Shown here one piece after another: positions 6,481-36,580 of a stretch of DNA of 39,727 nucleotides. Every line of letters begins with the position of its first letter. Positions within the stretch are counted from its first letter, which is position 1. Below the pieces are notes generated by a model that saw only the letters and a program-made list of their open reading frames with translations, searched no databases and was not told the origin of the DNA. Source of the stretch: a virus (lineage: Duplodnaviria > Heunggongvirae > Uroviricota > Caudoviricetes); the IMG/VR virus record IMGVR_UViG_2778261268_000004. One strand, given 5' to 3'. The position numbers and the translations under genes are program-made.

Positions 6481-6495
6481 TTACCGTTGAGGTAA
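6481..6495. promoter_or_regulatory. Operator-like palindrome TTACC-gttga-GGTAA (OL-like, site 1)
   Basis: Perfect 5-bp inverted half-sites; between leftward promoter and first leftward gene. Confidence 0.6.
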
Positions 6496-6523
6496 TGATT
6501 ATGCGTATCTGGTTTGATGTCAA
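6494..6523 (-). promoter_or_regulatory. Candidate leftward early promoter (PL-like)
   Basis: TTGACA (revcomp at 6518-6523) with CATAAT/ATAATC-like -10 about 14-16 bp downstream; flanked by the two operators. Confidence 0.45.
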
Positions 6524-6542
6524 TAGATATGAGTTAAAAAAA

Positions 6543-6557
6543 TTACCCATAAGGTAA
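6543..6557. promoter_or_regulatory. Operator-like palindrome TTACC-cataa-GGTAA (OL-like, site 2)
   Basis: Perfect half-sites, just upstream of the leftward promoter. Confidence 0.6.
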
Positions 6558-6570
6558 TCCTGCTGGCAAT

Positions 6571-6593
6571 AAAAAAGCCGCCATGAGGCGGCT
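6571..6593 (-). terminator. Rho-independent terminator after the repressor gene
   Basis: Stem AGCCGCC/GGCGGCT with T-run on the minus strand. Confidence 0.7.
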
Positions 6594-6614
6594 TACTTAC
6601 TGAAAAATATGATT

Positions 6615-7199
6615 TTATTGTTTGTTTTTTTCGTTCTGGCTGATGACAAATTCAATGTAACTTTCGATCTTTGCCTTCTCTGTTTCGGGTAACAATGCGT
6701 AGCGCGAGCGGTCATAGTTGATAGTCGCAGGGTCGTGCGGGTGAATCAGTAATTCATAGCCGTGACGCCCGAATGCGGATGCAACATTCTCCAGGGTGGA
6801 AATGGAAACGCTGACCTCATTGTTTAACAGGCGGCTGATTGTCACCTGGGCGACGCCGGATGCGCGGTGAAGTTTTCCCTGTGTTGAAAGGTCGCGGCTT
6901 TCGCTCATCCAGCGTTCCAGGTTGTGAGCCGCCAGCTGACCAATGTCGCTTGGGCCGACAGGCTGAAAACCTTCCTGAGAAAGCGAGCGATCGATATCAA
7001 GCCAGTTACGGGGTTTATTGGCGGCAGCTTCAATTTTTCGCGCAACCTGGTCGCCGATAACCTTCTTGCCAAGAGCCCAGCGGTTTACCAGATTTGCCTG
7101 AGTTCCAAGTTTTTCTGCCATCCGCGTCTGAACACCATTGAATTCACGGTCGATCAAGTCGTTGAGATTTTGCCTGCGGACGTCCTGGATACTTTTCAT
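6615..7199 (-). CDS. CI-like prophage repressor with two HTH (XRE-type) domains, no S24 peptidase domain
   Basis: Two HTH-like segments (QTRMAEKLGTQANLVNRW and GVAQVTISRLLNNEVSVS); divergent from a Cro-like gene; flanked by palindromic operators; terminator downstream. Confidence 0.7.
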   Translation of the reverse strand: MKSIQDVRRQNLNDLIDREFNGVQTRMAEKLGTQANLVNRWALGKKVIGDQVARKIEAAANKPRNWLDIDRSLSQEGFQPVGPSDIGQLAAHNLERWMSESRDLSTQGKLHRASGVAQVTISRLLNNEVSVSISTLENVASAFGRHGYELLIHPHDPATINYDRSRYALLPETEKAKIESYIEFVISQNEKNKQ

Positions 7200-7254
7200 T
7201 TTCTGGAAAATCGCCTCATATATGAATCAGTAGATGATTCAATTTAAAGCAATA

Positions 7255-7269
7255 TTACCCAACAGGTAA
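7255..7269. promoter_or_regulatory. Operator-like palindrome TTACC-caaca-GGTAA (OR-like)
   Basis: In the 154-bp divergent region between repressor and Cro-like genes. Confidence 0.6.
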
Positions 7270-7302
7270 ATGCACCCCATAGGTAACTATCCTTGATTTT
7301 TG

Positions 7303-7317
7303 TTACCTTATGGGTGA
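7303..7317. promoter_or_regulatory. Operator-like imperfect palindrome TTACC-ttatg-GGTGA (OR-like)
   Basis: Same divergent region; an isolated GGTAA half-site lies at 7282-7286. Confidence 0.5.
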
Positions 7318-7353
7318 ATATTTATTATCTGAAATAAATATCAGGCAATAGCT

Positions 7354-7584
7354 ATGAGCGATAACGGACATTTCGATTTCAAAAAGCACTGGCTTGCACT
7401 TACTCCGGATGAGCGTGAAGCCTTCGCACAGGAAGCCGGAACGACGAGTCACTATATCCAGACTCACTTAACAGGTAAGCGCAAAATGCCAGGTAAGGTA
7501 TTGATGAATGGGCTTTTTAAAGCCTGTAAAACAAGACAATGGCTGCGCTCAAAAGCAGAACTGGCATACTTCTTCTACTCATGA
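7354..7584 (+). CDS. Cro/YdaS-like small DNA-binding regulator
   Basis: 76-aa protein divergent from the repressor; HTH-like QEAGTTSHYIQTHLTGKRKM; terminator follows. Confidence 0.7.
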   Translation: MSDNGHFDFKKHWLALTPDEREAFAQEAGTTSHYIQTHLTGKRKMPGKVLMNGLFKACKTRQWLRSKAELAYFFYS

Positions 7585-7606
7585 TATCCAGCCACAACCC
7601 TCTGTA

Positions 7607-7628
7607 GACCGCCATCCGGCGGTCTTTT
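7607..7628 (+). terminator. Rho-independent terminator after the Cro-like gene
   Basis: GACCGCC-atcc-GGCGGTC followed by TTTT. Confidence 0.7.
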
Positions 7629-7734
7629 CATATCTATTCGCACCTCAAAGGTAATAAAAAACCAAATGTGGTTGATCTTTTTTTTGTGTCAGCACAAAAT
7701 GACCGTAATCCCAATACTAATAACAGGGCTTACC

Positions 7735-7935
7735 ATGGAAATCATTACACGTATTGATGCCGCAAAGCGCGGACTTAAACGCTATTACACCGGAAAACAA
7801 TGTAAGCACGGACATGACAGTGAACGCTGGGTTTACAACGGACACTGTGTTGAGTGCACCATGGAATCAAACCGTCGCATCAGGGCAGAGATTAAGCAGA
7901 TCATGATTAATTCCTCCCCACAACACTCAAGCTGA
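7735..7935 (+). CDS. Hypothetical small zinc-finger-like protein (start uncertain)
   Basis: CKHGH...CVEC pattern; track start ATG 7666 is part of the ATGTGGTT motif and lacks an RBS, so an internal ATG is preferred. Confidence 0.4.
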   Translation: MEIITRIDAAKRGLKRYYTGKQCKHGHDSERWVYNGHCVECTMESNRRIRAEIKQIMINSSPQHSS

Positions 7936-7950
7936 TAGCGGAGATTAATC

Positions 7951-8766
7951 ATGAGCAGACATGCAACAGATTGGGCCTGGGAGACAGATCCAGGCAGCTC
8001 ATCATTAAAGCTCATACTGCTCTCGATGGCTGACAGAGCCGATGAATATAACCTCTGCTACCCCAGCATAGAACGCCTAGTTAAAGACACTTGCCTGAAT
8101 AAAAAAACCGTGCAGGCCGGACTTATATCGCTCATGAAAATGGGGCTTATTTCAGATACCGGAGAGAGAAAGGGAGCGACGAAAAGAGTGCGGGTTTTCT
8201 CTCTTAATATAACCAAAAACGGGAACATTAAAGGCAACCGGGAAGGGGGTAATGAACCCAAAAACGGTAATGTTACCGAAAACGGGAATATACCCAAAAA
8301 CGGGATGTTGAATGATCCCAAAAACGGGATGTTGAATGATCCCAAAAACGGGATCCAGAACCAGTCATATAACCAGTCATTTAACCAAGAGAGGGAGAGC
8401 AGGACAAAAACCGGGGATTCTGTGCCTCATGACCCCGGCGCAAACAACGCTGTGATGAATAACTTTGTTCCTCCAGGTGGGCCAGGGCAATTAGGCAAAT
8501 TTGTCATGCATGAACAATGGCAGCCATCAGATGACTTTCTTCGGAAAAGCTCATTGCAGGGGATCTACCTGGACAGTCTGCCAACGGCACAGGAACTTGC
8601 AGAGTTCAGAATTTACTGGATGGCTGAGGGTAAGGCATACCATCAGGCACAGTGGGAGCAGAAGCTGGCAAGGCGGCTGCAGATTAGCAGACAGAAGCAA
8701 TCAACATTACCTGATAACAACGTTCCGCACTGGAACAGCCCTGAAGCGTGGGAGGATTTCTTGTGA
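7951..8766 (+). CDS. Replication initiator (O-like; N-terminal HTH, DnaT-like C-terminus) containing iterons
   Basis: N-terminal DWAWETDPGSSSLKLILLSMADRADEYNLCYPSIERL HTH pattern; internal direct repeats; followed by a P-like gene. Confidence 0.75.
   Translation: MSRHATDWAWETDPGSSSLKLILLSMADRADEYNLCYPSIERLVKDTCLNKKTVQAGLISLMKMGLISDTGERKGATKRVRVFSLNITKNGNIKGNREGGNEPKNGNVTENGNIPKNGMLNDPKNGMLNDPKNGIQNQSYNQSFNQERESRTKTGDSVPHDPGANNAVMNNFVPPGGPGQLGKFVMHEQWQPSDDFLRKSSLQGIYLDSLPTAQELAEFRIYWMAEGKAYHQAQWEQKLARRLQISRQKQSTLPDNNVPHWNSPEAWEDFL
8213..8382 (+). repeat. Iteron-like direct repeats inside the replication-initiator gene (candidate origin)
   Basis: CCAAAAACGG(G/T)A at 8213, 8258, 8294, 8318, 8342 including two exact 24-bp tandem units (8293-8316, 8317-8340); AACCAGTCAT x2 at 8361-8382. 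Confidence 0.6.
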
Positions 8767-9548
8767 ACAACGTTTTTACCGCGATACAAAACCGTGACGG
8801 AGAAGCCCTTTCTCGCATGTCAGGTTATGAGCATCAGTACGTCAACAATGACAATGTGGTGAACATGTCAGCAGAGAGGCTTGTTGATGCCCTTTTCAAA
8901 CAGCTGAAACAACTGTTTCCGGCGGCAGTGGTAACCAACCTGAAGACGCCAGAGCAGGAAGTTGCTGCAAAACAGCAGTGGATTGCTGCGTTTGCCGAAG
9001 GGGGGATCCGAACCCGTGAACAGGTTTCTGCTGGTATGCGCCACGCCCGCGCCAGTGAATCTCCGTTCTGGCCGTCGCCAGGGCAATTTATCAAGTGGTG
9101 CAAAGACAGCAAGATGGTTCTTGGCGTCACCATTGACGATGTGATGGCGGAGTTTCACCGGTACAGCAAGGAAAAAAGTTTATATCCTGGTGGTCCCGAA
9201 AGATTCCCGTGGCGGCATCCGGTTATGTACTGGGTCGTATGTGATACCCGCCGTGCAATGTATCAGCGCCAGCTTAGCGAGATTGAGGTTGAGAAACACG
9301 CGCGCCGGCTGCTCGATGATTGGGCGAAAAAGGTGGCTTCCGGACAGCAGATACCCGATCCGGTGATCAGCATACAGGCAAAGTCAGAGCCCATGAGTAC
9401 ACCTCCGGACACAGGGAGAGACGTTTACCATCCACCGGGGCGAAGTTTCGGGTGCATGCCTAACGCCGCCACCCTTGGGGGAATAACACCGGCGCAGTGG
9501 CTGATGGAGGAATACAGGCGGGGAAAGGCGGCAGGATTTATCAAGTAA
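8763..9548 (+). CDS. Replication protein P-like (helicase loader)
   Basis: QQWIAAFAEGGIRTREQVSAGMRHARASESPFWPSPGQFIKWC resembles lambda P; GTG start with GGAGG RBS overlapping the upstream stop. Confidence 0.7.
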   Translation: MNNVFTAIQNRDGEALSRMSGYEHQYVNNDNVVNMSAERLVDALFKQLKQLFPAAVVTNLKTPEQEVAAKQQWIAAFAEGGIRTREQVSAGMRHARASESPFWPSPGQFIKWCKDSKMVLGVTIDDVMAEFHRYSKEKSLYPGGPERFPWRHPVMYWVVCDTRRAMYQRQLSEIEVEKHARRLLDDWAKKVASGQQIPDPVISIQAKSEPMSTPPDTGRDVYHPPGRSFGCMPNAATLGGITPAQWLMEEYRRGKAAGFIK

Positions 9549-9585
9549 TACCAGCGCGATAGCGCATTTTTTTACGCCTCAACAA

Positions 9586-9600
9586 TTACCTATGAGGTAA
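9586..9600. promoter_or_regulatory. Operator-like palindrome TTACC-tatga-GGTAA
   Basis: Upstream of DUF1064-like gene. Confidence 0.5.
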
Positions 9601-9620
9601 CAAAATATTCTAAACTCTAT

Positions 9621-9662
9621 TGATTTCGTGTCTTATGTGGTTTTTAATTACCTTAGAGGTAA
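9621..9662 (+). promoter_or_regulatory. Candidate promoter (TTGATT-17 bp-TTTAAT) with ATGTGGTT in the spacer, overlapping operator TTACC-ttaga-GGTAA (9648-9662)
   Basis: -35/-10-like hexamers at 17-bp spacing; operator overlaps the -10/+1 region; ATG at 9666. Confidence 0.5.
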
Positions 9663-9665
9663 ATC

Positions 9666-10010
9666 ATGAGAAAACAGATACAGGCTCTTGGTCGACTCAA
9701 AACAGGCCAGATGAACAAAACAGAATCTGCGTATTGCCAGCACCTTGAGCTGCGTAAACGTGCAGGGGAAATCGCCTGGTATCGATTCGAGGGTATCAAG
9801 CTGCGGTTAGCTGACAACACGTTCTATACGCCAGATTTCGCTGTGATGCTCGCCACCGGAGAGATGGAACTGCACGAAGTGAAAGGTTTCTGGACCGACG
9901 ACGCCAGGGTGAAAACCAAAGTCGCCGCAGATCAGTATCCGTTCCGAATCATCGGGGTAACGGTTAAGCCAAAGAAAGCAGGTGGTGGCTGGAACATCGA
10001 AGAGTTCTGA
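9666..10010 (+). CDS. DUF1064-like protein (putative PD-(D/E)XK nuclease)
   Basis: YTPDFAV...ELHEVKG nuclease-like motif; promoter plus two operators upstream. Confidence 0.6.
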   Translation: MRKQIQALGRLKTGQMNKTESAYCQHLELRKRAGEIAWYRFEGIKLRLADNTFYTPDFAVMLATGEMELHEVKGFWTDDARVKTKVAADQYPFRIIGVTVKPKKAGGGWNIEEF

Positions 10011-10071
10011 ATCGACGATCTTTTTAGTTATCAATGTAATCAATAAGTTATGTGGATAAGCGAGGGTAAAG

Positions 10072-10533
10072 ATGGAAAGTAATATCAAAGGGTTAGTTGC
10101 CGCCGGGCATGAGATGGCTTCGGAACTGAAAGCAGAATGTGGTGCCGTTGATATGCGTAGTGTGGCAAAGCTGATCAGCGATTTGGCAACGCAACTGGAA
10201 GTGCAACTGGTGCGTGCTAATGCGCTGGCGGCGGAGAATGCAAAGCTGAAGAAGTTCTGCAAAGACGCTGCATTCGATGCCGATTACGAAGCAGAGCTAG
10301 GTATGGAGCGTGGTGGATTCAGTGATGCGCTTAACGAAATCAAAACCCCAGCCACCGATGCTTTTCTGGCTGAAGTACGGGCGCAGGGGGTGGAGATGTA
10401 CGCAGATAACCTCGACAACGGAGCAGACGACGCAGAACGAGGTGGTTTTGATTATGCCGTTAAGTTTCTACGCAGTGAAGCGTCTAGTGTACGTTTGTTC
10501 TCCGACCAGCTTCGCAAAGGAGGCAACCAGTGA
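10072..10533 (+). CDS. Ea22-like protein
   Basis: N-terminal ...ELKAECGAVDMRSVAKLI pattern typical of lambdoid Ea22-like proteins. Confidence 0.5.
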   Translation: MESNIKGLVAAGHEMASELKAECGAVDMRSVAKLISDLATQLEVQLVRANALAAENAKLKKFCKDAAFDADYEAELGMERGGFSDALNEIKTPATDAFLAEVRAQGVEMYADNLDNGADDAERGGFDYAVKFLRSEASSVRLFSDQLRKGGNQ

Positions 10534-10784
10534 GTAATTCAGCACGACTACAGCTTGGTTTTTCACCGCTATCAAAAACTATCATGCTGGCAAAAATGCG
10601 CGATGTTGAAGGTGGACGTATGCGCGTTGGCAATGATCCAGGTCGTGATGTTACCAATGAGGCTGCTCAATTGGTGTGGCGACTGGTCATGGCTGAAGGT
10701 GGTGAGATCGCGTGGGAGCTGGATGATGGTTCTCGCATGGTGTTGAAGGCAGAAAAACAGGAGGCAACCAGTGAGCAAGATTGA
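10530..10784 (+). CDS. Hypothetical phage protein
   Basis: Coupled ORF in nin-like block. Confidence 0.4.
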   Translation: MSNSARLQLGFSPLSKTIMLAKMRDVEGGRMRVGNDPGRDVTNEAAQLVWRLVMAEGGEIAWELDDGSRMVLKAEKQEATSEQD

Positions 10785-11301
10785 CTATCAGGTACTGCGT
10801 GAGGCAGCAGTAGCAATTGAAACAGTAGCAACGCCTCAAAAATTGCTGGCATTTCGTATGAAAGTCACACCTCAGGTTGTGCTGGCTCTACTGGATGAAC
10901 TGGAAGCCAAAGACAAAGCATGGTCCGCACAGGACAACCATATCAACCAGCAGGCTTACCGAATTGAATCGCTGGAAAAGAAGAATGGCGAGCTGGGAAG
11001 ATCGCTGGAAGCCGCAGAGAAGCGCATAGCAGAACTGGAAGCCGAACCTGTAAGCCAAACTTGCAAGTTGAACGAGCCATCGGGCAACTCTCCGGTAACT
11101 CCGGGTGGTTGGATAAGCTGTAGTGATCGAATGCCGAAAGGGTATGCTGATGTGTTAGTGACCGACGGCGAGCATGTCGAGGTTAAATGGTGGGATGAAT
11201 CTGGGTATTGGAATAGTTGGACGGAACTTAGCTCAGATATCCTTGCCCATGAAATAACTCACTGGATGCCGCTACCGGAGCCGCCGCAGGAGGCAAAATG
11301 A
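10771..11301 (+). CDS. DUF551-like protein with coiled-coil N-terminus
   Basis: C-terminal ...THWMPLPEPP signature. Confidence 0.55.
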   Translation: MSKIDYQVLREAAVAIETVATPQKLLAFRMKVTPQVVLALLDELEAKDKAWSAQDNHINQQAYRIESLEKKNGELGRSLEAAEKRIAELEAEPVSQTCKLNEPSGNSPVTPGGWISCSDRMPKGYADVLVTDGEHVEVKWWDESGYWNSWTELSSDILAHEITHWMPLPEPPQEAK

Positions 11302-11651
11302 TGGACTATTCACAGTTAAGTGATTTTGAAATTAACAGAATGGTAGGAGACATAATTTTTAAAGGCCTTTGGGCGTGTAAACCGGAAACATCAGGGAATA
11401 ACACCAACAAATGGTATTACGGAAATACTGATACAACTTTTGAGCCATTAAACCCTTTACCTGACTACTGCAATAATCCATCGGATGCATGGCCTATTAT
11501 TGTTGATAATAAAATCAGTCTAACCTGCCACCAATCTCGCGGTGAGTGGTCAGCTGTTTTTAATGCCGAGAACATTTGCTTTCATGCGAATAATCCACTC
11601 CGAGCCGCCATGATTGTATTTCTCATGATGCAGGAAAATCAGAATGGCTAA
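11298..11651 (+). CDS. NinX/DUF2591-like protein
   Basis: MDYSQLSDFEIN N-terminus typical of NinX-like proteins. Confidence 0.5.
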   Translation: MMDYSQLSDFEINRMVGDIIFKGLWACKPETSGNNTNKWYYGNTDTTFEPLNPLPDYCNNPSDAWPIIVDNKISLTCHQSRGEWSAVFNAENICFHANNPLRAAMIVFLMMQENQNG

Positions 11652-11982
11652 ATCAGCAGCAGAGCGCAAAGCCGCTCAGAGAGCCAGACAAGCTGCATCT
11701 GGTGTGCGTAAGCTGGAAATTGTGCTTGATGCTCAGGAAATTGAAATGCTGGAGCGTAACTGTGCCGCGCGTCGCCCAGGGCGTGCGCCTTACGAATTTG
11801 GTGAGTATATAGCGTTACTGATCCGCCAGGATGATGCACGCGTGCGCGGGCGTATAAAATCGATCAGTAGAAAACGTTGCGGTAAGTGCGGCGAGAGAGT
11901 TCCAGTTAATTCATGTCCGTGTAATGGTGACTCACAATGCTGGGTGACTAAAGGCTGGCATGAAACGAAATTAATAGTGTGA
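11644..11982 (+). CDS. Hypothetical protein with C-terminal zinc ribbon (possible regulator)
   Basis: CGKCG...CPC cysteine cluster; last gene before the terminase; stop lies inside a GTGACATGTCAC palindrome. Confidence 0.5.
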   Translation: MAKSAAERKAAQRARQAASGVRKLEIVLDAQEIEMLERNCAARRPGRAPYEFGEYIALLIRQDDARVRGRIKSISRKRCGKCGERVPVNSCPCNGDSQCWVTKGWHETKLIV

Positions 11983-11990
11983 CATGTCAC
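11979..11990. repeat. Perfect 12-bp palindrome GTGACATGTCAC (copy 1)
   Basis: Exact string; overlaps stop codon of the 11644-11982 gene; terminator 40 bp downstream. Confidence 0.9.
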
Positions 11991-12031
11991 GAGTAGATTA
12001 TGCATGATGAATTTGACGGGTTTTGAATACT

Positions 12032-12058
12032 GCCGCCAACTATGGCGGCTTTATTTTG
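12032..12058 (+). terminator. Rho-independent terminator before the terminase genes
   Basis: GCCGCC-aacta-tGGCGGC followed by TTTATTTT. Confidence 0.65.
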
Positions 12059-12068
12059 CATGGTACTA

Positions 12069-12101
12069 TTACCACAACGGTAACTATTACCACGGTGGTT
12101 A
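12069..12101. promoter_or_regulatory. Tandem operator-like sites TTACC-acaac-GGTAA and TTACC-acggt-GGTTA upstream of terminase small subunit
   Basis: Direct repeat CTATTACCAC x2 forming one perfect and one imperfect palindrome. Confidence 0.45.
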
Positions 12102-12103
12102 TG

Positions 12104-12697
12104 ATGTCTGCTGAACCTAAAACCTATAAACGCAAATCAACGCAATTTAAGCCACTAACAGCAATGCAGGAGGCTTATTGCCAGTCATACATCAAAACGC
12201 CTGAAAACCAGACTCAGGCAGCGATTAACGCAGGATTCTCCCCAAATACAGCGGCAGTTAAAGCCAGTGTCATGATGCGCGATGAACGCATTCAAAAACG
12301 GATTGCCGAGTTGATGGAGGAGCGCAACAAACGAATGCGCGTCAGTGCTGATTACGTTCTCATGCGCCTGGTGGAGATCGACCAGATGGACGTGATCGAC
12401 ATCCTCAACGACGATGGGAGCCTTAAACCAATCCGTGAGTGGCCGAAAATCTGGCGCACTACGCTTAGTGGCTTTGATCTGTCATCGACCATCATGAACA
12501 TGAACGAGGATTCGATAGAGACAATCCTCAAAAAAATTAAATGGCCTGACAAGGTGAAGAACCTTGAGCTGATTGGTAAGCATGTTGATGTCAACGCGTT
12601 CAAAGAACGTCTGGATGTTAATGTGAATGTGACAATTGCTGATCGCATAGCAGCAGCCAGGAAGAGACTGAAAGAACGTCAGGATGGCAATCAGTGA
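12104..12697 (+). CDS. Terminase small subunit
   Basis: SPNTAAVKASVMMRDERIQKRIAELMEE pattern; ATG 12104 after GGTGG RBS; overlaps large subunit. Confidence 0.7.
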   Translation: MSAEPKTYKRKSTQFKPLTAMQEAYCQSYIKTPENQTQAAINAGFSPNTAAVKASVMMRDERIQKRIAELMEERNKRMRVSADYVLMRLVEIDQMDVIDILNDDGSLKPIREWPKIWRTTLSGFDLSSTIMNMNEDSIETILKKIKWPDKVKNLELIGKHVDVNAFKERLDVNVNVTIADRIAAARKRLKERQDGNQ

Positions 12698-14169: not shown

Positions 14170-14199
14170 TCCGCTGGTTGGGATAATGTCGTTGATATC

Positions 14200-14243
14200 C
14201 TCTGATGAGGATAAAACAAAGCCAGCTCATCGGCTGGCTGTTT
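14200..14243 (-). terminator. Terminator hairpin after gp49-like gene
   Basis: GCCAGC-tcatcg-GCTGGC with T-rich run on the minus strand. Confidence 0.5.
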
Positions 14244-14255
14244 GTGACATGTCAC
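14244..14255. repeat. Perfect 12-bp palindrome GTGACATGTCAC (copy 2)
   Basis: Exact string; adjacent to hairpin 14221-14238. Confidence 0.9.
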
Positions 14256-14259
14256 GGTG

Positions 14260-14631
14260 TTATTGCTCGCTTAGCTTCTGCTTCAGCAAGTAACCTTCGA
14301 GCATCCAGATTTTGTTTACAGCATTCTGCCGGGCAATCTTCCGACCAATTTCTGCATCAAAGTTTTCCGGGCTTGCACAGGCGCTCTCTCCGGTGACGGT
14401 GAAGCCGTTGCGCAGCACCAGGACGCAGAACGTCAGCAGAGAAAGTGATTCGTGCGGCTGGTAGTTTACCTCTCCGCCAGTATGTTTCGCTTTTATGGCT
14501 TTGCCAAAGGCACCATCTTCTGCTGTGAAATATGCCTCCTGAGCAATAATGCCTTCGATATGGTCTGGCGTAACGCGCGGTGCCGTTTTGCCTTTCTCAA
14601 CGATTTCTTTTTCGATTTGCTGGTCGTTCAT
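14260..14631 (-). CDS. N4 gp49/Sf6 gp66-family protein (moron)
   Basis: 123-aa minus-strand ORF downstream of the tRNA with its own terminator; family call from remembered pattern. Confidence 0.6.
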   Translation of the reverse strand: MNDQQIEKEIVEKGKTAPRVTPDHIEGIIAQEAYFTAEDGAFGKAIKAKHTGGEVNYQPHESLSLLTFCVLVLRNGFTVTGESACASPENFDAEIGRKIARQNAVNKIWMLEGYLLKQKLSEQ

Positions 14632-14830
14632 AATCTCACCTTAAAAAAAATGCCCGGCGAACCAGGCGAACTGGAAGCAATGAGTTATGCCTTCCGTGGC
14701 TGTACTGGTTTACAGCATGAAGTCATCGCAATGGCGTCCTGCTGTAAAAAGGGCGGTGGTAGTCCTTCAAGGGAAACCATCACCGCCAAGCCTCTGGAAC
14801 TTCTGGCATCACGGTCCTTAGGCGTGATTC

Positions 14831-14907
14831 TGGCGTGGCATGCAGGATTCGAACCTGCGACCAACCGCTTAGAAGGCGGTTGCTCTGTCCAACTGAGCTA
14901 ATGCCAC
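14831..14907 (-). tRNA. tRNA-Arg (anticodon UCU)
   Basis: Cloverleaf folds by hand: acceptor GTGGCAT/ATGCCAC, D-stem GCTC/GAGC, anticodon stem ACCGC/GCGGT with loop CTTCTAA, T-arm GCAGG-TTCGAAT-CCTGC, discriminator G, encoded CCA. Confidence 0.85.
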
Positions 14908-15229
14908 AACGCTGAGAGCACTTAGCCTGTTAAGGCGCCACACTTTGTCGCGGCTCCATAAATGCTCTCATCGTTGTACCCTCGTCTCTTCCGAGGCGTC
15001 ACACCGAATCGCCGGGATGGTGAATCCCCGTGCGCGGAATAAAACCGCTCGACTTGCACATTCCGGCTACCTGGTTCGTTTGCCCGAGCAAGGGAGGGTG
15101 CCCCTTAAACGTATCCAGACCGCTATCGGCGCATGTGCCATACGCCGTACTGCTCAAAATAAAAGCTCACTCCACCTGTTCAATTTAACGACAAGCCAGT
15201 CAGGTTAATAACCGGAATGAACTCTTTGG

Positions 15230-15244
15230 TTACCTGAAAGGTAA
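15230..15244. promoter_or_regulatory. Operator-like palindrome TTACC-tgaaa-GGTAA upstream of the virion module
   Basis: Perfect half-sites; ATGTGGTT at 15289-15296 and GGTAAT at 15302-15307 nearby. Confidence 0.5.
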
Positions 15245-15334
15245 TAATTCGTGCGTTAAATGTCAACTATCTACGATAAATAAATCATATGTGGTTAAAT
15301 TGGTAATAATTTAATTGCGTACGGAGTCATTGAT

Positions 15335-15541: not shown

Positions 15542-15555
15542 CCGGAGTCATTGAA

Positions 15556-17528: not shown

Positions 17529-17530
17529 TC

Positions 17531-18226: not shown

Positions 18227-18240
18227 GAGAGGAAATAACA

Positions 18241-19227: not shown

Positions 19228-19243
19228 CGCCTGTTATTAACCT

Positions 19244-19263: not shown

Positions 19264-19278
19264 TAATGGAGAAAGAAG

Positions 19279-19716: not shown

Positions 19717-19726
19717 GGTGATATCG

Positions 19727-20062
19727 ATGTCAGGTGAGAAACCAAGATACCGCGTTCTGCGCCTCTCTCATATCCATAACACACTGTGGCCGGAGGGGGC
19801 AGAAATCGAATACGAAGGTGAGCCTGGTAGCGCACTGGAACCTGTTAACGATGCAGCCAGACAGGCAAAAGCAAAAGTTGCAGGAAAGGTGTCAATGGCA
19901 GCAACCAGCACCAAAATCATCAACGATGTGTCAGATGATGGTGAACTGGATAAGCTCCGTGAAGAGTACGAATTGCTCTTTAACGAGAAGCCACACCATA
20001 ACGCTAAAGCCGAAACGCTCCGCGAGAAGATCGCAGATAAGCGTAAAGAACTGGGCGTGTAA
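19727..20062 (+). CDS. Hypothetical structural-module protein
   Basis: ATG after GGTG; followed by strong terminator. Confidence 0.45.
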   Translation: MSGEKPRYRVLRLSHIHNTLWPEGAEIEYEGEPGSALEPVNDAARQAKAKVAGKVSMAATSTKIINDVSDDGELDKLREEYELLFNEKPHHNAKAETLREKIADKRKELGV

Positions 20063-28815: not shown

Positions 28816-28820
28816 ATTAA

Positions 28821-31295: not shown

Positions 31296-31304
31296 GGATG
31301 AGAA

Positions 31305-31406
31305 ATGATTGCTTTTATTCTTGTTGTGTTTGCGCTTGTTGCACTTGGCGTTATGAACCGTAATGTATCATTGACGATGGCGAATTTGCTGTTGCAGTTA
31401 TTTTGA
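31305..31406 (+). CDS. Small hydrophobic peptide (33 aa)
   Basis: AAGGATGAG RBS; MIAFILVVFALVALGV hydrophobic N-terminus; not in ORF track (<60 aa). Confidence 0.3.
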   Translation: MIAFILVVFALVALGVMNRNVSLTMANLLLQLF

Positions 31407-31451
31407 TATTATCTGGTGTAGCAGGGTACATAGGCTTGTCATAACGTGAGC

Positions 31452-31463
31452 GTGACATGTCAC
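31452..31463. repeat. Perfect 12-bp palindrome GTGACATGTCAC (copy 3)
   Basis: Exact string; immediately upstream of terminator hairpin 31464-31482. Confidence 0.9.
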
Positions 31464-31488
31464 AGGCCGCTTTCGCGGCCTTGTTTTT
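31464..31488 (+). terminator. Rho-independent terminator ending the internal-virion-protein operon
   Basis: AGGCCGC-tttc-GCGGCCT followed by TGTTTTT. Confidence 0.75.
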
Positions 31489-31648
31489 AACGAATACCAC
31501 CGCCGCCAGGGCGGGAATCCGCAGAACGCCCACCGCAGCGGGAGCCGTCAGCGGCAGTATCGCTGTCGTGCTGACAACGACCGGCAAAGGCCTGAGTTGA
31601 AGCTACCAGAGACAACAAAACGAACAGTGCAGCAAATGCTTTTTTCAT
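31487..31648 (-). CDS. Small secreted peptide (signal peptide plus about 31-aa Gly/Arg-rich mature part with 2 Cys)
   Basis: MKKAFAALFVLLSLVASTQAFA signal-like N-terminus; weak RBS. Confidence 0.35.
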   Translation of the reverse strand: MKKAFAALFVLLSLVASTQAFAGRCQHDSDTAADGSRCGGRSADSRPGGGGIR

Positions 31649-31720
31649 TGTGAAATTTCCATCTATAAGCCACCTCAATGTGGCGTCAATGAGTGTAGCA
31701 CTGACTTTTGTTTCGTCCAC

Positions 31721-31746
31721 AAAAAAGCCCGCGCTGCGGGCTTCTA
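31721..31746 (-). terminator. Rho-independent terminator after the unknown 210-aa gene
   Basis: GAAGCCCGC-agc-GCGGGCTTC followed by TTTTTT on the minus strand. Confidence 0.75.
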
Positions 31747-32379
31747 TTAATGCAGTTTATCTTTGCTTATAACCAGTAGTCTGTGGGTATGCACATCTTT
31801 ATCACTGCCCCAACAGAAATCAGCCCACTGGCTATAGAAATCATCCCATGATGTCATGAAGCTAAGAGGTCTATCTTCTTCAGAGCCATCTGAAACGTAT
31901 ACATTATATCCCGGGGTGTTTATAGCCCAAGAAATCATTCTTTCCCAGAATCTTCTCCCATCGATTGTTTGTTGCTCATCAGATACAACAATCGCATATT
32001 GCTCTAGGAAGAACTGAAAAAAAATCTGAGGCAAACCATGAACAGCACGGTCATGAATAACATTAGGCGTACGCCATACCATGATCTGCGTACATGTTCT
32101 TTTGGCTTCGACGATATCTTCCCGAAAGATTAACTTAACCGCATACACCGTTTCTGGAGTATCGCTGGTAGTAATCATTCTGTAATGATCGCCATTACAA
32201 GATTTTACAAGGCGATAACCATAAGGTGTTGTGAATCCCGGAAGAACGAAATCAACCACACCTTTCGCTAAGTAGCTTTCGGTGTGACTAGTGTTCTTCT
32301 CAGACATGTTCAGTTTTCTATCGAAATCTGCTTCTGGGATAATGTATGGCATCGCTTTTCTTGTTGTATTTGTTCTCAT
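31747..32379 (-). CDS. Unknown 210-aa accessory protein (moron)
   Basis: Strong GGGAGGA RBS 5 nt from ATG; own terminator (31721-31746); TTACC-N5-GGTAA operator upstream; no recognisable motif. Confidence 0.6.
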   Translation of the reverse strand: MRTNTTRKAMPYIIPEADFDRKLNMSEKNTSHTESYLAKGVVDFVLPGFTTPYGYRLVKSCNGDHYRMITTSDTPETVYAVKLIFREDIVEAKRTCTQIMVWRTPNVIHDRAVHGLPQIFFQFFLEQYAIVVSDEQQTIDGRRFWERMISWAINTPGYNVYVSDGSEEDRPLSFMTSWDDFYSQWADFCWGSDKDVHTHRLLVISKDKLH

Positions 32380-32438
32380 TTCGTCCTCCCATGTTTGGCT
32401 ACAGGACGCGTTTTGAAGGGAAGATTAAAAATGCTTTC

Positions 32439-32453
32439 TTACCCTTGAGGTAA
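32439..32453. promoter_or_regulatory. Operator-like palindrome TTACC-cttga-GGTAA upstream of the unknown 210-aa gene
   Basis: Perfect half-sites about 60 bp upstream of ATG 32379 (minus strand). Confidence 0.5.
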
Positions 32454-32525
32454 TAGTACGCTATTCACCCCCAGTCTGCAATCTGTACAGAATTATTTAA
32501 AGGCACATCCCTGTGCCGCCGCCCG

Positions 32526-33236
32526 TCAGAAGAACCCTGCCTTGTCGTTGATGTACTCCGCGTGCGTCTGGATATCACGCAGGCATTTGCTCACACCGAC
32601 GATGTAGCAGAACATGGTGGTCAGTTCCGCCGCCGCGCCCGATACGTCGTGCCCGTCTTCCTGTAACTGGTTTAGCAGATTCATCAGCAGTGAGCTCTCC
32701 GTCAGGCCGAGAACACCAGACGGCGAATGAATCAGGCTACGGTAGCCTGGCTTCAGTGGGGCACTGTAGGTTTTGTTCTCTATCTTCATTGCCTGCATCA
32801 CTGCTGATGCTGTGGCGTTGGCTACCTGGTCGGCAACCATCTTTATGCGTTCTTCCTGCGGGAGCGAGTTTTTAATGTAACTTCCGGTGCGGCGGATCTG
32901 AGGAAGAACCTCACCTGTAACCCATTTACGAAAGCGGTAGGGGATAGTGCCTGGTGTCACCGCATCGCGGCAGCGGAGGATCAGTGTGTAGAGGCCTGAC
33001 TCGGAGATGATGTTGATCTCTTTTACTCGGCTATCAAAAATTGCACGATGTTCATGCCCTATGTTGAACATAGACCTTTCATCATCATCCAGTTTTTCAA
33101 GTGATTGGGTGACGTTTTGGATACGCAGCGCACTACAAACGTCTTGGGCTACAAACCATGGTTGGCCATCGATAATGATGGAACGGATAGGGTTAACAGA
33201 TTCAAATTTGAAGATGGCAGTTTGAGCATTAGCCAT
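32526..33236 (-). CDS. Bro-N domain antirepressor-like protein
   Basis: N-terminal FKFESVNPIRSIIIDGQPWFVAQDVCSAL...ESGLYTLILR Bro-N pattern; GGAGAT RBS. Confidence 0.75.
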   Translation of the reverse strand: MANAQTAIFKFESVNPIRSIIIDGQPWFVAQDVCSALRIQNVTQSLEKLDDDERSMFNIGHEHRAIFDSRVKEINIISESGLYTLILRCRDAVTPGTIPYRFRKWVTGEVLPQIRRTGSYIKNSLPQEERIKMVADQVANATASAVMQAMKIENKTYSAPLKPGYRSLIHSPSGVLGLTESSLLMNLLNQLQEDGHDVSGAAAELTTMFCYIVGVSKCLRDIQTHAEYINDKAGFF

Positions 33237-33253
33237 GGTGGTTATCTCCACTT

Positions 33254-33268
33254 AGTGATTTTAATCAC
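33254..33268. promoter_or_regulatory. Palindrome GTGATT-TTA-ATCAC immediately upstream of the Bro-N gene RBS
   Basis: Inverted repeat located -15 to -35 from ATG 33236 on the minus strand. Confidence 0.35.
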
Positions 33269-33391
33269 CACCGCAACGCCAATTACTGGTGGTGAACTGG
33301 ACAAGGTTGGCGTACCGGCCTAAGTGGTACCGGCGTCCTTTCGGACCCCTGCCCAGCCCACCATAATTCGGATATGGCTGTGCTTAACGCA

Positions 33392-33414
33392 TAAAAAAAC
33401 CACGTCTGGCGTGG
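33392..33414 (-). terminator. Rho-independent terminator inside the antirepressor intergenic region
   Basis: CCACG-ccaga-CGTGG followed by TTTTTTT on the minus strand. Confidence 0.65.
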
Positions 33415-33505
33415 TATGCGCCACTTAGTAACTCGGGACGCCAATCCCGGCACTGGATTTTGCCAGTGCCCGATTACTATGGCACAAGAGGAGTGCGATG
33501 TAAAT

Positions 33506-33520
33506 TTACCGCAAAGGTAA
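33506..33520. promoter_or_regulatory. Operator-like palindrome TTACC-gcaaa-GGTAA
   Basis: Perfect half-sites in the antirepressor intergenic region. Confidence 0.45.
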
Positions 33521-33551
33521 ATATAAGCACTCATCTTGGTAATTTCAAATC

Positions 33552-33809
33552 TTATCTGGTTTGTTTTCGTAATTGTTCGGCACAATAGTCGAGATGTGTT
33601 TGCAGATCCCGCATAGACATCTGTGAGCTGGTGACGTAGTTAATCAGTGCAGTCAGTTCGGCAAGTGGGCCATCGACATTAAATCCATCCTTATCGAGAT
33701 CCCGGAGTAATTTCATCAAGTGCGATCCCTCCACCAGTGATCTGACGCCTCCCGGCGTGTGAATCCTTTCGGTAAATCCGTCTTCCAGTGGATAGTGATA
33801 CTGCTGCAT
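33552..33809 (-). CDS. Small protein paralogous to the C-terminal domain of the Bro-N protein
   Basis: RSLVEGSHLMKLLRDLDKDGFNVDGPLAELTALINYVTSSQMSMRDLQTHLDYC aligns with the C-terminus of the 32526-33236 product; GGAGAAG RBS. Confidence 0.55.
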   Translation of the reverse strand: MQQYHYPLEDGFTERIHTPGGVRSLVEGSHLMKLLRDLDKDGFNVDGPLAELTALINYVTSSQMSMRDLQTHLDYCAEQLRKQTR

Positions 33810-33885
33810 CTTATCTTCTCCATGCAATAACTGTATATTTATACAGTATCAAATAATTTGTTTGCTATCCAGCACGTTTTGTAAA

Positions 33886-33900
33886 TTACCCGAAAGGTAA
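33886..33900. promoter_or_regulatory. Operator-like palindrome TTACC-cgaaa-GGTAA
   Basis: Perfect half-sites in the divergent region between the antirepressor-like gene and the tailspike; ATGTGGTT at 33933-33940 and GGTAAT at 33946-33951. Confidence 0.5.
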
Positions 33901-34004
33901 TATCTATTCGTATTTACAGTCTTTCTATCCATATGTGGTTTTTCAGGTAATAGAATAACCAGATATGCGGCGCAACGGGTGCTGCGACTATCTGGAGATT
34001 TAAC

Positions 34005-36296
34005 ATGACGGTCTCAACCGAAGTTGACCACAACGAATACACAGGCAATGGCGTTACGACATCGTTTCCGTATACCTTCCGCATTTTCAAAAAATCCGAC
34101 CTGGTTGTTCAGGTGGTTGACCTTGATGAAAATATCGCTGTGCTGGCTCTTGATACTGATTACACTGTCACTGGGGCTGGTGGATACAACGGTGGCAATG
34201 TAATTTTGTCGAAGGCATTGGCCAGCGGTCATCATATTTCTATATCTCGAGAGCTACCAGTTACGCAGGAAACCGATCTGCGCAATCAAGGTAAGTTCTT
34301 TGCTGAAGTGCATGAGGATGCTTTTGATAAGCTCACTATGCTTATACAGCGGGCATATAGCGTTTTTCGCTTAGCTCTGCGTAAACCATCAAGCATTGCG
34401 AACTGGTACGACGCGCTGAACAACTGCATCCGCAATTTGCGCGATCCCTGCAACCCGCAGGATGCCGCCACCAAAAATTATGTCGATACGCTCGCAAACA
34501 GCAACTTAATCCGCACGCTGCGAGTTCCAGAAGTTATTATATCCTTGCCTGATGCTGAAACCAGAGCTAATAAGATGGTTGCATTTGATAGTATCGGCAA
34601 TCCTTTAGTGGTTTTGCCTCCTTCAGGTTCTGCTTCTGATGTTCTTATTCAGTTGGCTGCCTCAGATGGAGCAAAATTATCGTTAAGTCAAGTAGCCACC
34701 GCATATGGCCTTGATTTCTCGTTAGGCGGTGTATGGCGGGAGGGGGCGTTATCTAATGTTGATAACTGGTGGTGGTATAATAATAAAATCTACACTGGTG
34801 GTAGTGGCACTCTTCCGTCATCTCCTGCTTTGCCATGGTACGAAGTGACGGTAGCAGATTATATTTCTGTTGCTCAATTTTTCCCCATTACTGGTGATCC
34901 AGCGGCAGATAACTCAGCTAGCTTTAATGCTGCTGCAGCAGTTGCTTTATCGGCAGGAAAGAGGCTGTTTGTCCCTGCAGGAACTTACTATGTTAAGTCA
35001 CCAGTTGATTTAACAATAGGCACTGTTGACCTATTCGGGGATGGCGTTGAGAAGTCATTCATTATTGCGGGGAGTGGGTTCACTGGAGAGGCAGTTGTCA
35101 ACATGTACTACGAAACTGACTCTATAAGACGTAGCACATCTATCTATCACGTTACAGTTGATGGGAACAACATCGCCAACTATCCTTGCCGAATTCAATA
35201 TGTTCACCTAGGAAGAACCCATAATTGTCGTTTCATCAATGGCGCGGTGGCGAACTTATATACTATAAACGACTGGCTTAATACCTATGATTGCTGTTCT
35301 TTTGTTCCTGCGCCAAATCGCGGAGTTCACCTTGCTGGGGCTAACAACCGCGTAACGTTCAATAACTGTGGATTTGCATCAAATAAGGTCGGTGAATATG
35401 CCTTTTATGCTTCTGGTACTTCCCCTATTGAAGGTTTAAGCTTAATTGGATGTGACCTTGAGTTCGGCATTGGGCATGGCATGTACTTAAATACCCGAGT
35501 GACCAATATTGTTGGCGGGTACTATGGCGAAGCGATACAAGGCGATATTTTTACGGTTCCAGATGGAGTAGTAAAAATAAGCGGTGTAAATGCTTTTGTA
35601 GGATATTACAATGAGGGAGGAAGGTTTGTTGTTCTTGACAATGATGCTGTAGTTAAGGTTGATAGTTGCTGGATTGCAGATCAGGGCAACTTTAAACTTT
35701 CATTACTTGCATCAAGCGCTAACAACATGGCTCATGCTGTATTTACTAAATGTTATATTGGTGCAACTGTGTCTGGCCCACAAGTTATGGAAGGAGATTG
35801 TTTAGGCAAGATCAATATGAGGACGTTTGCAGAAAGCAGGGCAATCCTTTATACAATGAACAATACTGGTAATACAGTAACCAGAAGCAGATACAACTCA
35901 ATAGGAGCAAAAATAACCATTAATACCGTAACGAGCCCTAGTTCTAACAAGCTATCACTTAATACTAAGATAAAAGACAGAGGGTGGAAGGTTAACGACC
36001 GGGTGTACTTAATTGTTACTTATGAGAGTAATGTTGATATAAATATTTATTTAAGCAGTTCGATATATGCTGCATCGGATGCAACGCTATTTGGAACTTT
36101 ACCATCAACAAATGGTTCTTTATCTACGTGTTATATTGCTAATAATATTATTCCGGAAAATACATCTGAGATATTCGAGTTTTATGTAAATGGCGCTGGT
36201 GTTGGCGATTACTTTGCTATTCAGGATGTTACTCTTACAGACAGGTCATTCACTTTCAGTGGAACAACTATGACCACTTTTGCTAAGGCTGAATAA
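34005..36296 (+). CDS. Tail fibre/tailspike: T7 gp17-like N-terminal anchor plus beta-helix-like C-terminal domain (probable depolymerase)
   Basis: N-terminal pattern ending NKNYVDTL as in T7-type fibres; C-terminal repetitive Asn/Gly-rich region suggestive of a right-handed beta-helix. Confidence 0.85.
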   Translation: MTVSTEVDHNEYTGNGVTTSFPYTFRIFKKSDLVVQVVDLDENIAVLALDTDYTVTGAGGYNGGNVILSKALASGHHISISRELPVTQETDLRNQGKFFAEVHEDAFDKLTMLIQRAYSVFRLALRKPSSIANWYDALNNCIRNLRDPCNPQDAATKNYVDTLANSNLIRTLRVPEVIISLPDAETRANKMVAFDSIGNPLVVLPPSGSASDVLIQLAASDGAKLSLSQVATAYGLDFSLGGVWREGALSNVDNWWWYNNKIYTGGSGTLPSSPALPWYEVTVADYISVAQFFPITGDPAADNSASFNAAAAVALSAGKRLFVPAGTYYVKSPVDLTIGTVDLFGDGVEKSFIIAGSGFTGEAVVNMYYETDSIRRSTSIYHVTVDGNNIANYPCRIQYVHLGRTHNCRFINGAVANLYTINDWLNTYDCCSFVPAPNRGVHLAGANNRVTFNNCGFASNKVGEYAFYASGTSPIEGLSLIGCDLEFGIGHGMYLNTRVTNIVGGYYGEAIQGDIFTVPDGVVKISGVNAFVGYYNEGGRFVVLDNDAVVKVDSCWIADQGNFKLSLLASSANNMAHAVFTKCYIGATVSGPQVMEGDCLGKINMRTFAESRAILYTMNNTGNTVTRSRYNSIGAKITINTVTSPSSNKLSLNTKIKDRGWKVNDRVYLIVTYESNVDINIYLSSSIYAASDATLFGTLPSTNGSLSTCYIANNIIPENTSEIFEFYVNGAGVGDYFAIQDVTLTDRSFTFSGTTMTTFAKAE

Positions 36297-36302
36297 TTAA
36301 CA

Positions 36303-36328
36303 GAAAAGGTGGATCACTCCACCTTTTC
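36303..36328. terminator. Bidirectional terminator after the tailspike
   Basis: AAAAGGTGGA-tcac-TCCACCTTTT, A-run and T-run on both sides. Confidence 0.75.
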
Positions 36329-36475
36329 ATCAAGCCAGTCCGCCCACCACTGCATCATTTCTCTGCGCTTATCGAGATACTGAGCATGGTTGTAAATCCC
36401 GCGCATAGATCCTCCGTTAGCATGTGTCAGTTGCACCGCATTGACATCCTCCACGCCCTGAAGTACTGGGTTTTA
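36314..36475 (-). pseudogene. 3'-terminal remnant of a second P4-type integrase gene
   Basis: Open frame PVLQGVEDVNAVQLTHANGGSMRGIYNHAQYLDKRREMMQWWADWLDEKVE aligns with the C-terminus of the intact integrase (KALAHEQKGVRAVYNKAEYARQRAYMLQQWADMID) but is divergent; no upstream gene body. Confidence 0.6.
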
Positions 36476-36530
36476 CGGCGCACTGGATAAATTTACGATC
36501 TCATCCGTAAAATACAAAAAAACCACTTTA

Positions 36531-36580
36531 TTACCTTTATGGTGATTTATGTAAGGTGTTTTATTTAACCATATATGGTT
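36531..36580. promoter_or_regulatory. Operator-like imperfect palindrome TTACC-tttat-GGTGA plus palindrome AACCATATATGGTT upstream of the lysis cassette
   Basis: Same half-site variant as 7303-7317; AACCATATATGGTT at 36567-36580. Confidence 0.4.

Follow-up and report, generated by a model that had tools for sequence, protein, structure and literature searches.

Dispersed palindromes as probable operators of an SPC32H-type repressor in an epsilon15-group prophage

Phage epsilon15 and Salmonella phage SPC32H are the closest described counterparts of the system treated here, which consists of a palindrome, TTACC-N5-GGTAA, repeated across a prophage genome and a repressor, Rep, that would bind it. 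The GenBank record of epsilon15 (AY150271.2) contains seven features typed 'protein_bind, repressor, lysogeny' with the sequence ATTACC-N5-GGTAAT, located before terS, before gp3/portal, in the gp19/tailspike gap, at the leftward early promoter (three sites) and after the replication genes, and it cross-references the repressor of epsilon15 to SPC32H Rep (PDB 5D50). The prophage analysed here is contained in IMG/VR virus record IMGVR_UViG_2778261268_000004 (39,727 nucleotides; this whole stretch is referred to as the window) and belongs to the phiV10/epsilon15 group, genus Uetakevirus. An original prediction made from its sequence alone held that one repressor, with operators laid out like OL and OR of lambda and further copies elsewhere, directly silences many promoters through these palindromes. 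The dispersed layout of repressor sites is a rediscovery, being already known at annotation level in epsilon15; for the two kinds of site geometry, the strict spacing of paired sites at 62 bp and the late block that is conserved with them, all reported below, no prior description could be found, and text searches of the literature for the motif string returned nothing relevant.

In SPC32H, Rep forms a tetramer in which the paired DNA-binding domains come from different dimers, and the antirepressor Ant disassembles this tetramer (PMC9638917). A p53-like 'looping' tetramerisation domain keeps the two DNA-binding ends ~100 Å apart, and according to the same 2023 structural paper the repression mechanism of SPC32H Rep 'has not been extensively characterized' (PMC9986798).

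Judged by its sequence, the window carries the epsilon15/SPC32H system itself, with every feature of that system that sequence can reveal. Shared are the operator ATTACC-N5-GGTAAT and its positions (terS, gp3/portal, ant/tailspike, the leftward promoter PL and after the replication genes), homologous Rep and Ant proteins, a LexA box at ant and site pairs 62 bp apart. The window differs in a Rep that is only ~42% identical overall to those of epsilon15 and SPC32H, with matching N-terminal DNA-binding segments, in having two sites at PL instead of three, in a degenerate second site (OR2) within the operator region OR between the divergent rep and cro genes, and in the addition of two accessory units that appear to be controlled by Rep, a C4-RNA/Bro-N module at 33506 and a gene at 32439. 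The epsilon15 record omits the OR sites, the lysis site and the proximal 35969 site, though the motif occurs at each of them.

Distribution and conservation of the palindrome

The window contains 10 exact copies of TTACC-N5-GGTAA, against 0.039 expected under an independent-base model, and 100 dinucleotide-preserving shuffles of the window yielded no match at all.

6481, 6543, 7255, 9586, 9648, 12069, 15230, 32439, 33506, 33886: exact operator copies, by pattern match

All ten positions had been listed in the original prediction, which spoke of 'at least nine' copies where ten is the correct count, and the imperfect variants that it named at 7303, 12087 and 36531 are the sole one-mismatch copies in the window. 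Degenerate copies with 2 mismatches each lie at 7272 and 7640, bringing the tally to 13-15 operators at about ten loci. The spacing is specific, as gaps of 2-4 and 6-9 bp gave zero matches in the window and two singletons over the seven genomes compared below, and the consensus of the window copies extends the core by an A in front and a T behind.

Open reading frames (ORFs) were called deliberately over-long, leaving an intergenic share of 5.5% of the window, and 7 of the 10 exact sites nevertheless fall within that share (P = 1.6e-7). The remaining three 'coding' sites lie in a spurious plus-strand ORF (6304-6495), within terS as extended to a TTG start, and in an ORF overlapping two Rfam RNA genes, and all exact and one-mismatch copies fall outside plausible genes. 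Under the deposited coding-sequence annotation, the sites of epsilon15 (11/11) and SPC32H (10/10) are all intergenic. Most operators are preceded by terminator-like hairpins, which lie after rep, cro, the replication genes and the tailspike gene and before terS, and the genome reads as a series of putatively insulated units, each headed by a single operator or by two.

Conservation was assessed across seven genomes, namely the window, phiV10, epsilon15, SPC32H, Enterobacter phages Tyrion and BUCT554 and Klebsiella phage BUCT711, each of which has 8-11 exact copies at equivalent positions (PL, OR, after the replication genes, terS, gp3, ant/tailspike and lysis). Alignments of the regulatory regions show invariant half-sites, with variation in the central 5 bp and most of the flanks. 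Excess over shuffled sequence, intergenic enrichment and retention in related prophages had each been proposed as a way of examining the prediction, and all three were found; the placement of the remaining copies at the heads of replication-distal, packaging, virion, accessory and lysis units was likewise borne out by conserved positions across the genus. The closest relative of the prophage is Escherichia phage phiv142-3 (97.9% identity across 90% of the first 25 kb), and PAS61, ZX5, TL-2011b and phiV10 are further near relatives. The immunity region (6440-7600) occurs at >=95% identity in 540 of 5,426 complete E. coli genomes, nearly always as a single chromosomal copy.

These distributions bear directly on whether the motif is regulatory at all. 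It could instead have arisen by chance, serve a methylase or a restriction-modification system as target, form terminator hairpins or mark module boundaries as a sequence for recombination, and its bipartite form does resemble Type I restriction targets, the phage does have methylase genes and the sites do lie at module boundaries. Restriction targets, however, are usually depleted in phage genomes rather than enriched at promoters, and a 15-bp sequence whose centre varies offers too little length for homologous exchange. The 5-bp stem is too short for a terminator, and the real terminators adjoin the operators rather than lying on them. Ten copies where 0.04 are expected, their intergenic location, their exact register with -10 hexamers and their fixed 62-bp pairing leave a non-regulatory origin with a negligible probability, and the statistics together with the promoter register effectively refute it.

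Rep, Ant and the Cro-like protein

The proteins that could act on the palindromes are encoded in the immunity region and in the leftward unit upstream of the tailspike gene.

6615..7199, minus strand: rep, SPC32H-type prophage repressor, full-length match to PDB 5D50 chain A
7354..7584, plus strand: Cro-like small repressor, opening the rightward operon, phrog_35 'transcriptional repressor', E = 6e-13
33552..33809, minus strand: ant, small antirepressor, match to PDB 5D50 chain E, E = 2e-46, start codon from sequence
33831-33846: LexA box CTGTATATTTATACAG, canonical, over the ant promoter

Residues 1-190 of Rep align to residues 2-197 of 5D50_A (E = 4e-42), covering an N-terminal helix-turn-helix, a middle dimerisation domain and a C-terminal domain for tetramerisation and Ant binding. 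Pfam assigns only HTH_3 and other helix-turn-helix families to the protein, and no peptidase S24 domain was found in it by Pfam. The LexA box overlaps the predicted ant -10 (TACTGT) and is kept in 6/6 aligned genomes. By these matches the repressor is a non-cleavable, tetrameric Rep of the SPC32H type, predicted to be inactivated by a LexA-controlled antirepressor, and is not lambda-cI-like.

The palindromes are very probably operators of this Rep. This assignment is made because of the motif statistics and intergenic enrichment; because epsilon15 annotates the same motif as repressor sites at seven equivalent positions; because Rep and Ant match chains A and E of PDB 5D50 and a LexA box lies at ant; because the -10 register at PL, 9648 and 33506 is conserved together with the 62-bp pairing; and because the half-sites and the helix-turn-helix segment of Rep are both invariant. 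The last point is seen in the segment N36-L-V-N-R-W41, which is identical in all compared Reps even though overall identity to the Rep of the window is 42-78% (about 42% for epsilon15 and SPC32H). A more distant comparison comes from Pseudomonas phage PseuP_224, a lambda-like siphovirus with a Q gene, whose cI shares 39% identity with Rep in the N-terminal domain. In this phage TTACC-N4-GGTAA, with a 4-bp gap, occurs solely beside cI, in two copies upstream and one exact and one imperfect copy downstream (10906, 10932, 11768 and 11807). Because copies occur only beside this homologous cI, the TTACC half-site appears to go with this repressor family. The comparison suggests a wider family of repressors reading TTACC half-sites at different spacings, with the genome-wide spread of sites being, so far as these sequences go, a trait of the epsilon15 group.

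The conserved Cro-like protein offers a second candidate for the same sites. The repressors cI and Cro of lambda use common operators, and the palindromes may also be operators of the Cro-like protein, in which case two proteins would act on them where the original prediction had foreseen one; its reading of the sites as repressor operators holds, and its restriction to a single protein is what the Cro-like protein puts in doubt. The protein is 58-84% conserved, with an invariant segment AGTTSHYIQTHLTG that is its putative recognition element, and this fits an invariant operator as well as Rep does; no PDB sequence match was found for it. Taken further, Rep would be relevant solely at OL (the sites at PL) and OR, and the distal copies would serve mainly the Cro-like protein, or another conserved phage protein, in lytic growth, with no role in lysogenic silencing; such lytic roles could include the shutdown of early or accessory promoters and the timing of late units. 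In keeping with this, the late-unit sites lie 57-80 bp upstream of likely starts, a distance that suits activators or modulators better than repressors acting by occlusion. On the other hand, the curators of epsilon15 give the distal sites to the repressor, the sites at 9648 and 33506 share the core-overlap geometry of the PL operator, the 9586/9648 pair has the 62-bp spacing of PL, and the related half-sites of PseuP_224 flank a cI gene. A use of the distal copies mainly by the Cro-like protein is considered unlikely, and Rep is kept as the probable ligand.

Early and accessory promoters

In the early region the operators lie at PL, at OR and at a promoter near 9.6 kb that follows the replication genes.

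6481..6495: OL proximal operator, exact, over the PL core
6523-6495, minus strand: PL, TTGACA (6523-6518), 17-bp spacer, AATCAT (6500-6495), 10/12 matches
6543..6557: OL distal operator, exact, upstream of the PL -35 and just past the rep terminator (6594-6575)
7255..7269: OR3-position operator, exact, overlapping the -35 of the likely rep maintenance promoter
7272..7286: OR2-position operator GCACCCCATAGGTAA, 2 mismatches, exact in epsilon15, SPC32H and BUCT711
7303..7317: OR1-position operator, 1 mismatch, in the spacer of the rightward promoter PR
7640..7654: degenerate operator past the cro terminator (7606-7625), 2 mismatches
9586..9600: distal operator of the 9.6-kb promoter, exact, following the replication-gene terminator
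9648..9662: proximal operator of the 9.6-kb promoter, exact

In a first geometry, here termed core overlap, the -10 hexamer and the operator share one base, the last of the former and the first of the latter, and the operator then spans ~ -7 to +8. It is found at PL, at the 9.6-kb promoter (TTGATT, 9620-9625, 17-bp spacer, TTTAAT, 9643-9648; score 9/12) and at a leftward accessory promoter ending at 33520, with promoter scores of 9-10/12, and it is present in every genome that has the unit. In this register the background frequency of a score >=9 is 8e-4 and that of a score of 10 is 5e-5. The arrangement of PL and its operator is the same in 7 genomes, and the 9.6-kb promoter is conserved in 7 genomes. 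The right half of operator 9648 (GAGGTAA) doubles as the Shine-Dalgarno sequence (GAGGT) of the next gene, whose ATG is at 9666, so that a leader starting from the 9.6-kb promoter would be only ~10 nt long.

At PL and at the 9.6-kb promoter the operators occur in pairs, 62 bp apart in the seven genomes with one case of 63; the exception is an OL pair, the OL pairs of the other 6 genomes keeping to 62 bp. As 62 bp corresponds to 5.9 helical turns, the paired operators should face the same side of the helix, and one Rep tetramer probably binds both, bending the DNA between them. A published structural analogue of SPC32H Rep is Rco of the Bacillus plasmid pLS20, which combines an N-terminal helix-turn-helix with a p53-like tetramerisation domain and binds two operator regions ~75 bp apart, looping the DNA (PMC9986798). 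Rco differs in reading direct-repeat arrays at one locus, whereas the window has single palindromes at many loci.

The three OR sites (7255, 7272 and 7303) are spaced 17 and 31 bp apart. PR has a conserved TTGATT -35 at 7293-7298 and a -10 around 7317-7328, and the rep maintenance promoter is likely TTTACC-17-TTAAAT on the minus strand. Past the cro terminator, only the right half of site 7640 (GGTAAT) is conserved, being invariant in five genomes. One-mismatch copies of TATCTGGTTT at 6506 and 33553 looked like members of the second conserved motif, the late block described below; the copy at 6506 was rejected, being unconserved in epsilon15, SPC32H and BUCT711.

This region resembles the cI/Cro switch of lambda in the divergent orientation of its repressor and cro genes around three operators, in the several operators at the leftward promoter and in the overlap of promoter cores. 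The lambda-like OL/OR layout that had been predicted is present in this sense, with two sites at PL and three at OR when 7272 is counted; the repressor that goes with it is not cI-like, as Rep is of the SPC32H type and has no S24 domain. Rep thus differs from lambda cI in lacking an autocleavage domain, and further differences are that no N or Q homologue was found in the scanned early genes, that operators also lie outside the immunity region, and that cooperativity would probably extend over 62 bp within one tetramer, where lambda relies on adjacent dimers and 2.4-kb OL-OR looping.

The core-overlap geometry recurs in two leftward accessory units.

32439..32453: operator before the accessory gene 31747-32379 (minus strand), exact, with a TACTAT -10 in core-overlap register and a weak -35
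33506..33520: operator over the start of the leftward promoter, exact
33548-33520, minus strand: leftward promoter, TTGAAA (33548-33543), 17-bp spacer, TATATT (33525-33520), score 10/12
33393-33469, minus strand: isrK-like RNA, Rfam, 67 bits
33285-33368, minus strand: C4 antisense RNA, Rfam, 66 bits
32526-33251, minus strand: Bro-N antirepressor with an Ant-like C-terminus, by sequence match

The two RNAs sit between the promoter at 33520 and the Bro-N antirepressor, and the module matches, as read from its sequence, the layout of the immI operon of phage P1 (c4-icd-ant). The immI operon is under the control of the P1 repressor C1. On this reading the prophage has two antirepressors, one under LexA and one under Rep and an antisense RNA.

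Phage P1 is also a parallel for the dispersal itself; its repressor C1 has 22 dispersed operators (PMC8546580). Both systems use one repressor with many dispersed operators for separate units, are relieved by protein antirepressors instead of cleavage, and have a repressor-controlled antirepressor operon with a C4 antisense RNA, which in the window is read from sequence only. The P1 operators are asymmetric 17-mers, however, and C1 is unrelated in sequence to the Rep of the window, which matches HTH_3 and 5D50. Moreover, the late promoters of P1 are controlled indirectly through the C1-repressed activator Lpa, whereas the window has operators beside its late units.

Late units and a proposed mechanism of lysogeny

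The remaining operators lie at terS and ahead of the head, tailspike and lysis units, where their relation to promoters is of a different kind.

12069..12101: adjacent terS operators, 12069 exact and 12087 with one mismatch
15230..15244: operator upstream of the gp3/portal/head operon, exact
15286..15309, plus strand: late-promoter-like block CATATGTGGTTAAATTGGTAATAA, 56 bp from the operator start, in six genomes
33886..33900: exact operator in the divergent ant/tailspike gap
33930..33953, plus strand: late-promoter-like block CATATGTGGTTTTTCAGGTAATAG of the tailspike gene, 44 bp from the operator start
36531..36545: imperfect operator upstream of the lysis cassette, 1 mismatch; relatives exact or one-mismatch
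36570..36593, plus strand: late-promoter-like block CATATATGGTTTATTATGTATGAT of the lysis genes, 47 bp from the operator in relatives and 39 in the window
11644..11982, plus strand: 112-aa candidate late regulator, final gene of the rightward early set and immediately ahead of terS, phrog_536 'transcriptional regulator', E = 1e-54

The annotated epsilon15 counterparts are the sites at 12-27 (terS), 2931-2947 (gp3) and 19895-19911 (ant/tailspike). A terminator (12032-12049) directly precedes the terS operators, which overlap both the start codon (~12100-12103) and the ribosome-binding site, and no convincing promoter was seen between the terminator and the operators. In the phiV10 record terS starts at a TTG at position 41 (phiV10 41-121; window 12023-12103), so that its coding sequence takes in the operators; when epsilon15 and SPC32H are aligned with it, an ATG ~80 nt downstream is favoured (window ~12100-12103), with the operators then in the leader.

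A precedent for such promoter-less sites is gp71 of mycobacteriophage L5, whose sites occur genome-wide, few of them at promoters, the others stopping elongating polymerase (PMC6550527), and the terS sites of the window look like this latter class. All distal copies might accordingly be stoperator-type roadblocks against leaked polymerases or lysogenic transcription, with the late promoters controlled by an activator cascade alone, a reading that partly overlaps the one preferred here. Besides the L5 precedent and the position of the terS sites directly behind a terminator, it would account for late-unit sites upstream of promoter-like blocks, and no terminator lies between ant and the next promoter, that of operator 33506. 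The L5 sites are, however, 20-30 asymmetric 13-mers that follow the direction of transcription and lie mostly off promoters (PMC6550527), whereas the window has 13-15 palindromic sites that lie strictly between units, several of them exactly on promoter cores. Since 9648 and 33506 clearly overlap good sigma-70 cores, roadblocks cannot be the whole story, and as a general account of the distal copies they are possible but doubtful. Palindromic sites and an unrelated repressor also place the window system, on its sequence, in neither the P1 nor the L5 type.

The head, tailspike and lysis units share a second geometry, in which the centre of the operator is ~60-80 bp upstream of the probable start. 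Operator 33886 precedes the ant start by ~57 bp and the tailspike start by ~68 bp. Between operator and gene lies the late block, CATATGTGGTT-N7 followed by TAATAA, TAATAG or TATGAT (consensus CATAT(G/A)TGGTT-N7-TA(A/T)(T/G)A(A/G/T)), which is conserved in six genomes at an operator-to-block distance that is constant within each unit. Its -35 is poor, and it looks like an activator-dependent late promoter. Related ATGTGGTT blocks occur within the 9.6-kb promoter, in its spacer (9634), and past the cro terminator (~7664). Of the late-unit sites, only that of gp3 has a weak partner operator 62 bp downstream (15292-15306, right half GGTAA); the tailspike unit has a half-site 50 bp from its operator and the lysis unit has no partner half-site, so that no general rule emerges.

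Searches against PHROGs, Pfam and NCBIfam, covering nine genes of the rightward early region (7666-11982) and two ORFs at about 14.3 kb, found no Q or N homologue. The absence of a recognisable Q-like antiterminator, which the original prediction had remarked on, is upheld for these genes, with the qualification that the last of them, 11644-11982, is a candidate late regulator. Its product has a basic N-terminus and a Cys/His-rich C-terminus (C79, C82, C91, C93, C99 and H106) and is at least 73% identical across Enterobacteriaceae; it has no Pfam family and no match in a profile search against PDB sequences, and its AlphaFold model (mean pLDDT 59.7) is too poor for use. The protein is a candidate late activator that occupies the place of lambda Q but is not a Q homologue. 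A PerC-family protein in the leftward early operon (2559-2858, minus strand), assigned by PHROGs as a transcriptional activator and conserved in the genus, is another candidate regulator of the late block.

Direct repression of several promoters is well supported by the sequence at the early and accessory units, but at the late units it can only be inferred. The predicted direct silencing of many promoters fits PL, PR, 9648 and 33506 and, weakly, 32439; simple occlusion is unsupported at the portal, tailspike and lysis units, where the sites are ~60-80 bp upstream, and at terS. That the late-unit copies repress directly is given slightly better than even chances.

Several observations weigh against a direct role of Rep at every site. 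No recognisable promoter core is overlapped by a site at the three late units or at ant, and the operator-to-block distances of 56, 44 and 47/39 bp define no common helical phase. The Cro-like protein is more conserved than Rep, and covariation cannot separate the two. Two comparisons with other phages speak for Rep, each within limits. In phage ZX5, overexpression of the repressor lowered holin and endolysin transcripts by >99.9% (PMC9782041); the ZX5 repressor is 99.5% identical to the Rep of the window, and the drop fits direct repression or a cascade alike. When relatives were sought that keep the virion genes but pair them with another repressor, only Sodalis phage phiSG1 turned up, which has a related portal gene, no Rep that could be found and zero copies of the motif, and which as a degraded and distant genome is a weak control.

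In the mechanism proposed here, tetrameric Rep with its two DNA-binding units would occupy, in the lysogen, the head of nearly every terminator-bounded unit. It would block RNA polymerase directly at four sigma-70-type promoters (PL, PR, the 9.6-kb promoter and that of the C4-RNA/antirepressor module) and would occlude the promoter at 32439 weakly. At terS, Rep on the operators at the ribosome-binding site would stop read-through transcription as a roadblock. Its part at the head, tailspike and lysis units would most likely be that of a second lock, by blocking read-through from upstream, by hindering an activator or by looping to weak half-sites. Induction would follow the SPC32H route, in which LexA cleavage allows Ant to strip Rep from the DNA, so that every unit is released together, and the second, Rep-controlled antirepressor would reinforce the switch. 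The sequence shows the sites, their conservation, their register with promoters and the homology of Rep and Ant, whereas the occupancy of each site by Rep, the looping and any effect on late units are inferred.

A more specific version, put forward tentatively as one possibility, is that the late-unit operators act without occlusion. The block CATATrTGGTT-N7-TAnnAn, otherwise undescribed as far as could be found, would then be the late promoter of the genus under an activator, for which the 11644-11982 product and the PerC-like protein are the best candidates, and the Rep tetramer would add a second, activator-independent lock through looping or anti-activation.

Some further features lie outside these units. 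The attachment core ATTGAGTGGGAATGATT (attR) occupies 38550-38566, and the final 1.2 kb of the window (38567-39727) is flank beyond the prophage, with two minus-strand genes that match phage families (phrog_1094 and the DNA methyltransferase phrog_1277). A conserved operator-like site with one mismatch, TTACCTTAAAGGTAT, lies in the attP arm beside int in phiV10, epsilon15, SPC32H and Tyrion; in this prophage it would lie just to the left of the window. A tRNA-Arg(tct) gene (14831-14907, minus strand) is located between the terminase and head units, as in SPC32H, and the ORF that overlaps it (14452-14901) is probably spurious.

A single repressor with operators at many units is annotated in epsilon15 and has precedents in P1 and L5, so that its finding here adds little alone. 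The remaining interest lies in a looping-type tetramer acting on pairs of sites spaced strictly 62 bp apart and in the control of late genes without a Q protein. If true, the double lock would be a Q-free design of late control unlike those of lambda, P1 and P2. Related immunity regions are present in Salmonella, Klebsiella and Enterobacter, and this wiring controls a very common prophage that changes the O-antigen.

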